In this document: positions 32,774 through 44,100 of the stretch, piece by piece
Layout: each line of letters begins with the position of its first letter
How positions within the stretch are numbered: position 1 is the stretch's first letter
Assembly (NCBI GenBank): GCA_000146045.2
Contig: BK006937.2
Location: 192,001-256,000 of the forward strand
Source of the DNA: TPA_inf: Saccharomyces
Lineage: Eukaryota
Length of the DNA stretch: 64,000 bases
Reading direction: 5' to 3'
Notes under the pieces: model-generated
What the model was told of the DNA's origin: nothing
Database searches by the model: none
What the model saw: only the letters and a program-made list of their open reading frames with translations
Position numbers and translations under genes: made by a program

Positions 32774-32797
32774 TATATATATATATATATATATATG
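32774..32797. repeat. (TA)12 dinucleotide microsatellite followed by (TG)3, just 3' of TAH1
   Basis: attatatatatatatatatatatatatgtgtgt. Confidence 0.85.
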
Positions 32798-32874: not shown

Positions 32875-33562
32875 TCTTCGCGCGTCAACTTTCTACCAAG
32901 AGAAAAACAATATAAGGTCTCCTTACTCTATAGGAGAATAAAACAAACAAAAATAAAAAGCACATCGTAGCGCCAAGAAAATACTGCAAATACCAAATAC
33001 CACAATAATACTACAATTATCTATACACAAGTGTTTTGCCGCTTAAAACTTCGATTTTCATAGTACGAAACTATACACCCTTGGTTTTTCTCTTTTCTAA
33101 ATACATATCTACCTTGTAAAGAATTTCCCGCACATCTTTGCGGGCATACAGTTCATGTATTGGCAACTAACGGAACTAAGGCAACATATCTTGCATATTG
33201 CAATGTTCACTATATAGATGAAAACTTATATCTAGGTTTCACGACACGAGAATAACTAAGAAGCACGATCCATGATATAGAAAAATCAGTTACGACGAAG
33301 CACGGCAAATTAGCCGCCGAAGACCGATATTTTTGCCACCGGTCACAGTTTTCTTTTCCACGGAGCTCTTCGCGGTTTTTTTGTTCCGGATTTTTTTTAC
33401 CGGCTCTTAGCGGACCGTTTTGGTTATAAGGGGAGTGGCAGCGGCGGTAGACACTGCGCTCTATAAGAATACTTGCAAGGGTCTTGTCTATTGTATAATT
33501 CGCTAGTATTTGTTTTGCATTGTACTCTTAATACCCCAACCAAAAACAAAATAGTGAGAGTA

Positions 33563-35458
33563 ATGGTGCGTTTTGTTTCAATTTTAAGTTTATTCGGCTG
33601 CGCGGCGACGCTTGTCACGGCCCATGATGACATGGACATGGACATGGATATGGACATGGATATGGACATGAATATCGATACGACAACGTCTCAATCCATA
33701 GATGTCTCATCCACGGCTTCAATCGTCCCCGTGCCACATGAACCAAAACATTTGCATGGCCTTCCTATACTGCAATCGCCCTCGCTTACCCCTGCGGAGA
33801 GATTGTACTGGGAAAACTACAACACCACAACCTACTTTACTACACAGGCTGGGAATAGGTCTGCCCTTCGCTACCACATTATTACGCTGCTCTTGGTTGC
33901 ATTTGTGCTCTACCCTGTGTCCCTGGCGCTAAGCGCCGCCCGTTCTAGGTGGTACTTACCCCTGCTGTTTGTTAATCTATGCATTTGTATTTCGTCCGTA
34001 ATGGCATTGTCCGTGTTCAAAAATACTTTCCCGGAAGAAGACTGGTATGCGCATAATATCTATGGCACCACTTCTGTGCTACTTCTCGTTTTTATGCTTG
34101 TTCACTTCTTCGCTGCGGTGCTTTCTGTCCCCGTCTCATTAGCATCGAAAAAGGAGTACCGTCCGGTTGACACCATCCCTCTGAATGATCTTGAATCTAC
34201 GCCCGTCATGGTGAATAGTGCACGTGGCTCTCCAAGTCCTTCTTCCAACAGAGACACGTTGTTCTCGCTCTCTTCAGACACCACGACCGCCACGGCCACC
34301 AATAATAATAAACGGAGACGCGCTGAAGGCGAAGACGAGGGTGATAACACCTCCAACCACGACACTTTGCGCGACGAAGACTACGATAATGATGACGACG
34401 AAATTGCTTCCATTGAAGCGCCACCTCTGCTTCCTCAAGACATACCCGTTTTCCGAATCTTGTTTACCAACACGAAGTACCAGATGCTTGCCGCGCACCT
34501 CTCGTGCGTCGCCAACGTGGTCTTTCACATGCTTACCTACCCGCTATTCATGTACATCTTTGTAGACCTAATCATCGGCTTCGCTGTAGGTAACTTGCTC
34601 GGCAAGGGCATCCGCATCTTTAATCTCTTGGCCCACTGGATTAAGGGCGGCGTATTTTTTACTCTGGGCGTTGTCTCTTTAGCAAGATACTGCGGTTTCG
34701 CAGCTAAGTACGGCTGGGCATGGAACAACATCAGCTTCACCTCTCAACTCACACAAACGCGTTCCTCCAATCTTCTTTTCCGGTTTGCTCCTGCGGGGAC
34801 TTTCACCATGGAATTCGTTGAATCCTTCCTCATTTTCTTTTACGGGTCCACCAACATCTTCTTGGAGCACCTGGCAGGAAACGGCGGCGCATGGACTGCC
34901 AAGGATTTACAGCATGTGTCGATCGCGTTTATGTTCATAGGAACCGGATTGTGTGGGCTACTCACGGAGTACAAGCTCAACCATTGGCGATTCGAGCATG
35001 CCCGCAAACGGCCACAGACCGATGTAGTTGCTGCCACACCGGGGTACTCTCCAAACCCGTTCCCCGCTTTCACCATATTTTGGACTGGGATTCTGATGTC
35101 CCAGCACGCACAGTCCTCGCAATTTTCTACTACCATTCACACGCAATGGGGATACTTGTTGTCCTATGGGTCCTTCTTCCGTCTGCTAACATTTTTGATT
35201 CTGTTTTTGGTGCCCAACACCAACAGTGCCGCATCCAAGCCTTTCACGGAGTTGATCACCTCGTTCTGTCTCCTCTGTGGTGGTCTGGTATTTATGGAGT
35301 CCACGGATCAGTCCATTGAAGCCATGGAATATAGGGGGTTTACCCCCATGTTCACTTTCAACCTCAGTGTTGGATTCGTTTCTTTGTTGATGGCTTGGGA
35401 AATGATTTTATTTATTTGGAAAGACTGGCTCATCAAAACCAGGAAAACCAGTCTTTAA
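33563..35458 (+). CDS. Multi-pass membrane protein of unknown function (YCR061W-like). It has an N-terminal signal peptide followed by a (DM)7 repeat.
   Basis: Signal-like MVRFVSILSLFGCAATLVTA, then HDDMDMDMDMDMDMDMN. There are about 10 TM segments and an acidic loop. The start was taken at the internal ATG 33563, giving 631 aa. Confidence 0.8.
   Translation: MVRFVSILSLFGCAATLVTAHDDMDMDMDMDMDMDMNIDTTTSQSIDVSSTASIVPVPHEPKHLHGLPILQSPSLTPAERLYWENYNTTTYFTTQAGNRSALRYHIITLLLVAFVLYPVSLALSAARSRWYLPLLFVNLCICISSVMALSVFKNTFPEEDWYAHNIYGTTSVLLLVFMLVHFFAAVLSVPVSLASKKEYRPVDTIPLNDLESTPVMVNSARGSPSPSSNRDTLFSLSSDTTTATATNNNKRRRAEGEDEGDNTSNHDTLRDEDYDNDDDEIASIEAPPLLPQDIPVFRILFTNTKYQMLAAHLSCVANVVFHMLTYPLFMYIFVDLIIGFAVGNLLGKGIRIFNLLAHWIKGGVFFTLGVVSLARYCGFAAKYGWAWNNISFTSQLTQTRSSNLLFRFAPAGTFTMEFVESFLIFFYGSTNIFLEHLAGNGGAWTAKDLQHVSIAFMFIGTGLCGLLTEYKLNHWRFEHARKRPQTDVVAATPGYSPNPFPAFTIFWTGILMSQHAQSSQFSTTIHTQWGYLLSYGSFFRLLTFLILFLVPNTNSAASKPFTELITSFCLLCGGLVFMESTDQSIEAMEYRGFTPMFTFNLSVGFVSLLMAWEMILFIWKDWLIKTRKTSL
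33629..33670 (+). repeat. (GAYATG)7 hexanucleotide repeat encoding (Asp-Met)7 inside YCR061W
   Basis: gacatggacatggacatggatatggacatggatatggacatg. Confidence 0.9.
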
Positions 35459-41124: not shown

Positions 41125-44100
41125 TCACAATTCGTCATGAAGGCCAGCGTAGTTTACGGTTCCTGCTACTGCATTATCATCGTTGACAATGTTTGTATTC
41201 GAATTATTATTCAAAGGTGCTGCAATTGTTTGCGGAGGGGCCACTGGATTAGGCAAAGAAGTGATCTCCACGTTAAGTGCTGAAATAACTTCACTAGATA
41301 GAGAGACGTCTTCGGTAACATCTACCGTACCAGATGCCTGCATTTCCGTCGTAAGCATTCGGGAAACAGGAGTATTTACATTTTCGCTGATTTTGTGGCG
41401 TACCCCAAACGCTTCAGATGAATCTTTTGATGACTGTACTTCTATCATTATTTCTTTCTGTACAAATCCTGATGCATCAATTGAACTAGCAGATATTTTG
41501 TGAGGGCTACTTACAAAAGATGGTGCTGTTGTGGTTACACCTGGCATCGGCTGAGCTACTGTGCTTGACGCGCTCTCCACGGATAAAGTTCCCTTGCCTA
41601 TATCAGACAGAGCGCCAATTGAAGCACCACTACTACTAAAGATCATAGATGCCATAGAAGTCCCTTCAATATTTGTGGATTCTGATAGGGAAGATTGACC
41701 AACACTCGTCTTAGGTGATTGTACAGCATCAGTGAAAACACTAGTGGGTTCCGAACTGTCAGCCAAAACACTAGTGGGTTCCGAATTGTCAGCCAAAACA
41801 CTAGTGGGTTCCAAATTGTCAGCCAACACACTGGTGTATTCCGAATTATCAATCAAGGCACTGGAGCGTTCTGAATCCTCGGTAGAGAAAGCAATTACTC
41901 TCGAAGTCTTCGTTTCTGTTTTTGAGAATGAGCTAGTTGCCGTCTCCACAATAGCTGATGAAACAGGTTCAGAGATGGAATGAAATTTAGAAAAAGTGGA
42001 ATCTGAGATTGAAGGGATTGATTCAGAAGCAAGAACAGAAGAAGTTACAGTCGATACTTCTATTGACTGGAAGCCAGAGGTTATAGATGAATCAGAAAAT
42101 GTACTCGGATGCGAGGAAATAGAGTCCTGGGATGCTGATGTTGACAAAATTTCTTCATTTGGGATCAAATTAGACGCAACTGAGTCAAATTCGGATGCTA
42201 TAGAAATAGAATGCGTAGGTGTTTCAACCATACGCTCTAATTCTGATGCTATGGGATCAATTTCGGAGACGGGCGAAGAAACCATAGTGTCTGTGGGCGT
42301 CAACAACATTGAAGAAGATGTTGTAACATACTGCTCGGCTTCTGCATTGGAATCTGATGCAGGTATATTCCTATACTCAATTTTTGTAATGACTTCAGTG
42401 ATTATTTTTGTCTTATAAATCTCTCTCGTGGATGCCGGTTTTGAGTTGTCTAGAAAAGATGTGTTGGCTGCATCATTGGTGGGGTTTGTTTGTGTGGTGG
42501 TAACCGCAGTCGCGGTACTTGTGGATAATGCTGTAGTAGGGCTAGTTGTTAACGATGAGGAAAGAGATAATGAAGATGAAGATGAAGACGGCATGTGTGA
42601 TAGCGAAGGTGATTCAGTACTTAAGAGTTTTGAAACGCTTTCTCTATCTGTTGTTATTTCGCTTTCTGATTGTTCTACTATTAACGAGGACAATTTCTCC
42701 TCCAAGTCAGGAGTCGGCTCAGGATATTCTGTGATAGAATTTGAAGATGAGGATAACAAATCTATCGACTCTGAATTCAGTGGAAGCGATGGTTTTTCGA
42801 CAATATTCGGTTCTGTAGGAGAGGCTAGCGGCTTCGTAATTTCAGAGGTAGGTGAAGACACAATTGGTTCATTAGTGACACTCTCTTCATAGAAAGAAGA
42901 AGAAGAAGAAGAAGAAGAAGAAGAAGCTGATGTTGGGATATCTGCAGAAGTGAATTGTGAATCAGCTGATGACGATATCCAAACAAATTTTTGCTCATCT
43001 TCTGTGGTGGTTCTCATAGTGCTAGTGTCAAATGAGGAAAATTCAGTCTCTATATCGCTAGCAACATCTGTAGCGCTGATGATATCTGCACTTTCAGTAA
43101 TGCCTCTGTAATCGTCATTAATAGTGAAATAAGAAGAAGATCCTTGGTCTATGGTAGTGTTTTCCTTGAATTTCGACTTATATATATCATGAGCATGTTT
43201 GTAAATAAAGCCGTGCACATTATGTTTGTAGCCTAGTTGAATAGCGCCAGCCAAAACCACTAACAAAACAAAATTCAAGAAAAATTTCCAAATATTTCGT
43301 AAAATTGATGACGATGTACCGGAAAGCTTCAGAACGTTGATCGTGTTCCCCATAGAAGTGCTTGCCAAATATCTAGAATCTGGAGAAAAAGTAACTTTTG
43401 TTATAGTAGATTCATGTACTCTTGGAACCAACTGAACAAGCTTTAGCTTTTCAACGCTGACGATGGCAACCAAGTTATCGTTAGATGATAATGCAACGAA
43501 CTTCTTATTTGGGGAGACATCCATCGATGTTATTCCATTCAAATCGAACATGAAGGATGCTGTTTTTAAAATTTTAACACCTTTGGAACTCACACCTAGT
43601 TTTAACAAGGAAACTCCATCAGAGTTCGATAATGATGCTGCCACTAATAGCGTATTGTCATTGAGAAACCTGATATTAGAAAGAACAAGATTTTTATCAA
43701 AATCCGTTTTCCTTGCTACAAAATTTCCGTCCCTAACAGACGCTACTTCCAAAGAATTAGAAGTGATATATGACAAAAGAATACCGTTAGGGGCGAAGTG
43801 CAAATCATTAACTTCCCTACCCGTTTCAATTTCGTAATTTTCCGTCAAATTACGCGGGTCAATGATTCTTATCACAGTGGGCACTTCAGAGGACGCAATT
43901 GCAGCTACTGTGGCCCTTTGATTAATGTAAACAAACTTAGTGAAAACGGATGGGTCTGTAGTTCTGTTGAAATCAATACTGGCCACGAATTTTAGATGTT
44001 CTTGTTCAAACACAAACTTCCTCAAGTGGTGGTTAACGTTCTCCATGGAGGAATCATTAAACAGTTCATTGCAACCAACTAGAATCAGGTTATTATTACA

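Follow-up and report, generated by a model that had tools for sequence, protein, structure and literature searches.

Within a window of 64,000 nucleotides of Saccharomyces DNA (contig BK006937.2 of assembly GCA_000146045.2, forward-strand positions 192,001 to 256,000), a gene on the forward strand encodes a membrane protein of 631 amino acids whose mature chain is predicted to begin with His-Asp and a sevenfold repetition of the dipeptide Asp-Met, (DM)7. As judged from the sequence, this gene is S. cerevisiae TVS1, or YCR061W, the name already given by an initial annotation of the same DNA; the identity holds because of the flanking genes and because the syntenic gene of S. kudriavzevii is named Tvs1p. 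Two Pfam matches account for most of the membrane part, PF10348 (DUF2427) at residues 85-187 (E 4.5e-27, 94.3 bits against a cut-off of 23.8) and PF10355 (Ytp1 C-terminal domain) at residues 332-621 (E 2.8e-110, 368.3 bits against a cut-off of 25). A total of 425 homologues was retrieved for the window protein, and both domains were matched by 72/72 aligned orthologues. The gene and its parts are arranged as follows, with predicted local accuracy of the AlphaFold2 model given as pLDDT and transmembrane helices abbreviated TM.

33563..35458, plus strand: TVS1/YCR061W coding sequence, 631 codons and a stop, ATG at 33563 (Pfam and homologue support)
33563..33622, plus strand: predicted signal peptide MVRFVSILSLFGCAATLVTA, residues 1-20 (hydrophobic helix 4-20 in the AlphaFold2 model, mean hydropathy 2.0)
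33623..33628, plus strand: His21-Asp22, predicted start of the mature chain (first-residue pattern in orthologues)
33629..33670, plus strand: (Asp-Met)7, residues 23-36, a (GAY ATG)7 hexanucleotide coding microsatellite (Tandem Repeats Finder, codons)
33671..33682, plus strand: N-I-D-T, apparent relic of two decayed units (AAT ATC GAT ACG against GAT ATG GAT ATG)
33683..33727, plus strand: Ser/Thr-rich linker TTSQSIDVSSTASIV, residues 41-55 (low pLDDT)
33728..33772, plus strand: His motif PVPHEPKHLHGLPIL, residues 56-70 (conservation; pLDDT ~74-82)
33815..34123, plus strand: DUF2427 domain with TM1-TM3 (Pfam); H105 close to where TM1 ends on the outer side, Y167 where TM3 begins
33821..33829, plus strand: N-glycosylation sequon N87-T-T just before TM1, within a nearly invariant 'YNTTT'
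34124..34471, plus strand: disordered acidic loop, predicted cytosolic, residues 188-303 (pLDDT <50, 11 Lys/Arg, 0 MxM)
34556..35425, plus strand: Ytp1 C-terminal domain, TMEM45A-like helical core, with H358, H436, H451, H515, H526, M512, M596 and E563

Read in frame from the ATG at 33563, the N-terminus is MVRFVSILSLFGCAATLVTA-HD-(DM)7-NIDTTTS, and the tract itself is DMDMDMDMDMDMDM. The initial annotation had placed a perfect, hexamer-encoded Asp-Met repeat immediately behind a signal peptide. Translation and Tandem Repeats Finder bear out this arrangement, with His-Asp standing between the two elements; the repeat is perfect as protein but imperfect as DNA, matching the consensus GACATG over 7.0 copies of period 6 at 88% (33629-33670); five of the seven units are GACATG and two are GATATG. 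A period-12 array found by the same program extends to 33675, into N-I-D-T, and these four residues read as two more units that point mutations have degraded. At the window's composition, (DM)7 would be expected 1.5e-18 times in a six-frame translation of the whole stretch, and the tract is its sole long M-x-M run. Because Asp-Met can be encoded only by GAY-ATG, any DM tract is a slippage-prone hexamer microsatellite, and this forced coding explains a series of alleles without a separate role for length variation. An open reading frame on the minus strand at 33424-33669 (81 amino acids, MSISMSISMSMSMSS...) was considered and rejected as a gene, as it is the mirror image of the repeat.

Such a series exists. 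In the S. cerevisiae 90% cluster, the alleles listed carry 2, 4, 5 or 7 DM units, corresponding to proteins of 621, 625, 627 and 631 amino acids, and four units represent the commonest form; the tract is an in-frame repeat in which strains differ by a whole number of units. In two alleles of seven units a Val or Ile breaks the pattern (DV or DI in place of DM). The exact 631-residue protein of the window is absent from a collection of 15 billion proteins, which holds 83 near-identical S. cerevisiae alleles, and in the closest alleles of equal length (631 amino acids) listed there the repeat is interrupted. In the comparison of copy numbers for which the initial annotation had called, the number is not conserved, while the tract is, in the form H-(G/D)-(DM)3-7, at 5/5 Saccharomyces loci, its 3' end having decayed differently in each. 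In S. kudriavzevii (locus L001, 3049-3135) four DM and two DV units are followed by a (GCC ACG)3 hexamer repeat encoding (Ala-Thr)3; by its sequence the tract has turned over here rather than simply expanded. The intragenic tandem repeats of yeast cell-surface genes are likewise in-frame, extracytosolic and variable in copy number between strains; Tvs1 differs from them in its unit of only 6 bp, in its range of only 2-7 units and in conserving the chemistry of Met, not the length of a glycosylated stalk.

Gene models of the family often begin at an internal Met of the tract (MDMDM...) and so lose the signal peptide. One example is the model P0002 at L006 1114-1203, whose true start lies 29 codons upstream, in frame. 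Database N-termini are unreliable for this reason, and counts of tract-bearing orthologues are lower bounds. The Naumovozyma castellii orthologue (L009, 1351-1560) is a different case, in which stop codons lie just upstream of the start and the protein begins with MNMHH and has no signal peptide; its short tail would need to cross the membrane without a cleavable signal.

The location of the tract follows from the predicted topology. An AlphaFold2 model computed on the 72 orthologues reached a mean pLDDT of 80.7 and a pTM of 0.78, with disorder at residues 19-47, which include the repeat (pLDDT <50), and at residues 198-284. Model helices and hydropathy together predict about 11 transmembrane helices, in place of the roughly ten of the initial annotation. 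The N-terminus is predicted to lie outside and the C-terminus in the cytosol, because the distribution of Lys and Arg, the signal peptide, the near-invariant sequon before TM1 and the basic C-terminus all agree. In the signal peptide, the small residues V-T-A stand just before His21, and cleavage after Ala20 is predicted by the -3/-1 rule. By this topology (DM)7 would be situated on the lumenal or extracellular side, as proposed in the initial annotation, at the very start of the mature chain. As regards the Ser/Thr-rich linker behind the tract, turnover of Tvs1 is reported to be altered in O-mannosyltransferase mutants (PMC6222916).

What is conserved beyond Saccharomyces is a methionine-rich tail at this position. 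Between the signal peptide and the His motif at least one MxM is present in 85/120 budding-yeast orthologues and MxMxM in 51/120, in a count that leaves out the initiator Met and takes in truncated gene models. In these orthologues the density of MxM per 100 residues is 2.9 in the tail and 0.063 elsewhere in the chain. The residue between the two methionines varies (D 113, E 24, N 19, G 16), and many of the tracts are therefore not DNA repeats. The first MxM begins a median of 3 residues past the predicted cleavage site; a crude rule for cleavage puts Met first in the mature chain of 23/78 and His first in that of 21/78 orthologues (44/78 together). Over the first 20 mature residues Met is enriched 5.8-fold, Asp 5.2-fold, Glu 2.4-fold and His 2.2-fold, with Lys, Arg and Cys depleted.

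The acidic, disordered cytosolic loop of the same 72 orthologues served as an internal control of equal Asp/Glu content. MxM occurs 143 times in 2,532 tail residues and 0 times in 6,249 loop residues, Met is 9.6-fold enriched in the tail over the loop, and a window of 12 amino acids rich in Met and His is found in the tail of 61/72 sequences and in the loop of 3/72. From this contrast it follows that the selected property is Met at this position and not acidity or disorder. Distant fungal homologues have a tail rich in His, Glu, Asp and Met instead, for example HEHEHEHEHKHKHNH, which often opens with HGD right after the signal peptide, an Arg or a dibasic site and is followed by a HxHxHG..P.L..LNET motif equivalent to KHLHGLPIL of the yeasts. 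On our reading, selection keeps a few MxM units and not an exact number. The initial annotation had counted absence or lack of conservation in close relatives, with neutral length variation only, as grounds against its reading; the MxM-rich tail is instead kept across budding yeasts. Of its two readings, a metal-binding site and a length-polymorphic spacer, each is partly right; the tract is length-polymorphic (2, 4, 5 or 7 units), and the Met-specific tail is conserved.

Adjacent to the tail lies a set of conserved histidines. H65, H358, H451, H515 and H526 are invariant in the 72 orthologues, and H105 is conserved in 99%, H63 in 94%, H59 in 82% and H436 in at least 94% of them. In an alignment of 94 sequences that includes distant fungi, H105, H358, H451, H515, H526, E563, M512 and M596 are still conserved. 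According to the model helices and the inferred topology, the conserved histidines are all placed close to the extracytosolic end of a helix or within an outer loop, and E563, M512 and M596 at or near the outer leaflet. Position 167 (window 34061-34063) is Tyr in every budding-yeast Tvs1 and His in 57/84 distant homologues (PDLYxxNAHHKxGW). Only one histidine, H181, is on the inner side; its conservation is 78% in yeasts, and among distant homologues the position varies. A pair of methionines in the last transmembrane helix, M610xxxM614, was considered as a Ctr-like filter and rejected as a family feature, as it is not conserved outside budding yeasts. Within the model, an outside tail, a His motif and outer-leaflet histidines together would fit a metal site.

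MxM and MxxM motifs are known to bind Cu(I) and Ag(I) by Met-only coordination that is insensitive to pH and survives acid where His sites fail (PMC9117721). On this basis and by analogy, we propose, at a probability of roughly 0.5, that (DM)7 is the window's allele of a selected Met-rich, acidic, Cys-free and disordered tail that acts as a Ctr1-like Mets motif. Thioethers spaced i, i+2 would chelate a soft cation, for which Cu(I) is the best guess, with Ag(I) and Pt(II) as possible mimics. The initial annotation had offered Cu(I) or Zn as examples, and of the two Cu(I) would be the better fit to Met-only ligands. The interleaved carboxylates could maintain the solubility of the tail and draw cations to it; with the chain extended, thioethers would project from one face and carboxylates from the other. 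Met ligands, unlike His, should stay functional at acidic pH. A captured ion might then pass to the adjacent H59/H63/H65 motif and from there reach H105, H358, H451, H515 and H526 at the outer leaflet of the membrane domain, which could transport the ion, reduce it or use it as its own cofactor. Slippage could change the copy number of the tract. That the tail binds a metal, which metal this would be and how it would be handed on are proposals by analogy with known Mets motifs.

The Mets motifs of Ctr1/SLC31 ectodomains are, like the tail of Tvs1, extracytosolic, N-terminal, disordered and free of Cys, with clusters of MxM. The N-terminal MxM/MxxM cluster typical of the Ctr/SLC31 family is found in Tvs1, as (DM)7 amounts to six overlapping MxM units. 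The occurrence of Met-rich tails in the acid-tolerant budding yeasts and of His-rich tails in other fungi parallels the difference between yeast and human Ctr1 (PMC9117721). The two proteins are otherwise dissimilar: Ctr1 is a trimer with 3 transmembrane helices per subunit, the Ctr family being marked by MxxxM in TM2 and GxxxG in TM3, whereas Tvs1 has about 11 together with DUF2427 and Ytp1 domains, and its tract is a strict alternation of Asp and Met. Cisplatin phenotypes are connected with both proteins but in opposite directions, as loss of tvs1 reportedly sensitises cells and loss of Ctr1 protects against the drug. A second group for comparison are the bacterial periplasmic copper proteins (the Met-rich inserts of CopA/PcoA, CopC/PcoC, CusF, the N-terminus of CopB), which combine Met with Asp and His, are free of Cys and often carry short tandem repeats. 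They share with Tvs1 an extracytosolic, oxidising compartment; their folds are unrelated, and their motifs are usually of the MxxM or MDH type and not a strict (DM)n.

The promoter of TVS1 points elsewhere. Two elements were recognised upstream of the start codon.

33332..33340, minus strand: Rpn4 site (PACE), exact consensus GGTGGCAAA, at -231
33357..33364, minus strand: Pdr1/Pdr3 response element (PDRE) TCCGTGGA, at -206

The two sites are 25 bp apart and occur in the same order at two other Saccharomyces loci (L003, L006), with the PACE at the corresponding position; S. kudriavzevii has a degenerate form of the pair, and four other genera lack it. The N. castellii promoter contains a single TTTGCTC, and loose Ace1-like matches are isolated and in no case conserved. 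With Pdr1 and Rpn4 sites and no metal sites, regulation points to xenobiotic or proteotoxic stress and not to metal sensing. YCR061W is reported as a Pdr1 target in a passage of PMC5386856 that cites Devaux 2001. The gene owes its name to tolerance of MCHM, by which it is induced and for which it is required, the protein being seen in puncta; MCHM is described by the same authors as perturbing metal ions and reactive oxygen species (ROS) (PMC7718757). Induction by 8-MOP/UVA has also been observed (PMC2040189), and the ycr061w mutant is listed as cisplatin-sensitive in a passage of the same paper that cites a database entry at second hand. Pt(II) binds Met-rich motifs, hence the interest of this listing. 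The sensitivity fits a soft-metal-binding protein, as circumstantial evidence.

Several observations weigh against a Ctr1-like capture tail. No Mac1, Aft1 or Zap1 consensus is present in the promoters of S. cerevisiae and of seven orthologues, and on the reading of these sequences the promoter is the main evidence against a dedicated role in copper uptake. The literature searched reports no copper, zinc or iron phenotype and no metal-binding measurement. A natural allele exists with no more than two DM units, which makes a long tract dispensable, and 35/120 orthologue models are without MxM by the count that leaves out the initiator Met, truncated models included. The cleavage site of the signal peptide was set by a crude rule and not by a trained predictor. 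The tail is disordered and the model consequently uninformative on a site there. Finally, neither the window protein nor the 72 orthologues gave a Pfam match to the Ctr family, even at E 10.

A neutral explanation would see in the tract a low-complexity spacer, a slippage microsatellite in a tolerant disordered linker and functionless in itself. It agrees with the range of 2-7 copies among S. cerevisiae alleles, with interruptions by point mutation that do no apparent harm, with the decay of the 3' end of the tract in every Saccharomyces species, with a pLDDT below 50 and with the minority of orthologues lacking MxM. It leaves unexplained why the cytosolic loop of these 72 proteins, no less acidic and disordered, lacks MxM altogether (0 against 143 in the tail) and is 9.6-fold poorer in Met, why other genera retain the tract with codons that do not repeat and middle residues that differ, why it begins within about 3 residues of the mature N-terminus and why a His-rich tail replaces it in distant fungi; we regard a purely neutral spacer as unlikely. 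Rather doubtful is the idea, a variant of the capture-tail model, that Tvs1 is a redox or hydrolytic metallo- or haem enzyme and not a transporter, in which the outer histidines would hold its own metal, a single b561-like haem or both, and the Met/His tail would only recruit or present this metal or else a metallic substrate for reduction or oxidation. Five family-wide conserved histidines with E563, M512 and M596 at or near the outer leaflet speak in its favour, as do distant homologues with His at both 105 and 167, and regulation by Pdr1 and Rpn4, which are not metal sensors, fits a stress enzyme. It also draws on recurrent weak matches of DUF2427 fragments to cytochrome b561 (PF03188; 5/32 fragments, best E 0.015) and on the overlap of the DUF2427 and cytochrome b561 Pfam models on sponge NOX proteins (PMC9524095). 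A search of solved structures with the DUF2427 domain profile found no b561. Of the two His pairs of cytochrome b561, one at each leaflet, the cytosolic one has no conserved counterpart in Tvs1; with no solved b561 matched either, the classical two-haem type is not supported. The His found at position 167 in distant homologues resembles, together with H105, the outer haem-ligand pair of cytochrome b561, and Tvs1 may carry a single outer haem.

Surface methionines could alternatively serve as a sacrificial antioxidant patch that scavenges oxidants at the lumenal or extracellular face under chemical stress and protects the protein or the membrane. The enrichment is specific to Met, which suits this role, yet the i, i+2 spacing, the strict N-terminal position, the His-rich replacement and the adjacent HxHxH would all go unexplained. 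It also counts against such a patch that the secretory lumen of yeast is not known to contain a methionine sulfoxide reductase by which oxidised residues could be recycled. Induction of TVS1 by MCHM, which causes ROS, the requirement for the gene under that treatment (PMC7718757) and induction by 8-MOP/UVA (PMC2040189) would agree with it; on balance we judge it improbable. A role at the level of nucleic acid or translation appears highly improbable: the seven in-frame AUGs would act as alternative starts that yield a protein without signal peptide, or the repeat would serve an antisense transcript. In its favour, automatic annotation of orthologues frequently places the start within the tract (P0002), a G stands at -3 of the first AUG, the N. 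castellii orthologue starts with MNMHH and lacks a signal peptide, and an antisense transcript, SUT458, which forms double-stranded RNA with the TVS1 mRNA, has been described at the locus (PMC11912912). Against such a role, the Met pattern past the signal peptide is conserved in most species with variable codons between the methionines, and the antisense reading frame at 33424-33669 only mirrors the repeat.

Comparison with known structures relates the membrane domain to a human protein. The Ytp1 C-terminal domain shares its helical membrane core fold with human TMEM45A (DUF716; cryo-EM structure 7OQZ), its closest structural match, and this relation is at the level of the fold only. The TMEM45A sequence used was confirmed against the PDB. 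No PF04819 (DUF716) match was obtained, and profile comparisons were not significant, hhalign giving a probability of 0.1-0.4% with a TMEM45A profile that is mammalian-only and shallow. By eye only, H358-x3-G-x2-F-x3-G can be aligned with H7... of TMEM45A and H515-x10-H526 with its H142-x10-H153. TMEM45A is without the signal peptide, the Met-rich tail and the DUF2427 module, all present in Tvs1. Nothing meaningful came from sequence searches of solved structures, whether the query was the protein or a profile of the family or of DUF2427, and a Foldseek search of the PDB gave no match below E 0.6, TMEM45A not being listed. The only match of the sequence searches, to a Ctr1-BRIL chimera (E 0.058), was discarded as spurious, as it aligns the disordered loop with the BRIL insert.

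The genomic surroundings of TVS1 have been retained in part of the family. In the window its neighbours are a gene for a TPR-domain protein, taken to be YCR060W/TAH1, and a gene of the BUD31 family. The order RWD/Impact, TPR, TVS1, BUD31 is common to S. kudriavzevii, Torulaspora and Naumovozyma; synteny is partial in Nakaseomyces, where the upstream part is found, and in Kluyveromyces, where BUD31 lies downstream. Other simple repeats of the window are a (TA)n microsatellite in the intergenic region upstream of TVS1 (32774-32797) and a perfect (AAGAAG)5 hexamer repeat at 42894-42923, and a short MKMKM run is encoded in a plus-strand frame at 42570-42584.

By both domains Tvs1 is a full member of the Ytp1/DUF2427 family, which includes S. 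cerevisiae Ytp1 (YNL237W), and a Met/His-rich N-terminal tail and outer-leaflet histidines are traits common to Tvs1 and the family. No domain fusions were found in long Tvs1 homologues. Elements of the Mets kind are already known, and the sequence itself, the gene and its family are in the public record; the literature searched contains no functional study of TVS1, of the two Pfam families or of the Asp-Met repeat, and discusses neither PF10355 nor the repeat. New with respect to that literature are the recognition of the dipeptide repeat as one allele of a conserved, Met-specific mature N-terminal tail in an unrelated family of about 11 transmembrane helices, the coupling of this tail to a conserved set of outer-leaflet histidines and the resemblance of the Tvs1 core to TMEM45A.

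TVS1 and the DUF2427/Ytp1 family are conserved across fungi without an assigned molecular function, and the same holds for TMEM45A, TMEM45 proteins having no known biochemical function (PMC13056615). We tentatively suggest, as a long shot, that Tvs1 and the Ytp1 family may be unrecognised fungal handlers of a soft metal, probably copper, on the lumenal or extracellular side, either transporters or b561-like metalloreductases, in which the Met/His tail would feed a histidine site. If true, the core fold common to Tvs1 and TMEM45A would give a first biochemical hypothesis for the DUF716/TMEM45 proteins. The natural alleles of 2-7 units represent a ready-made dose series. Even if the reading in terms of metal should be wrong, TVS1 would provide an example of a coding microsatellite whose length drifts although selection on the chemistry of its amino acids holds it in place.

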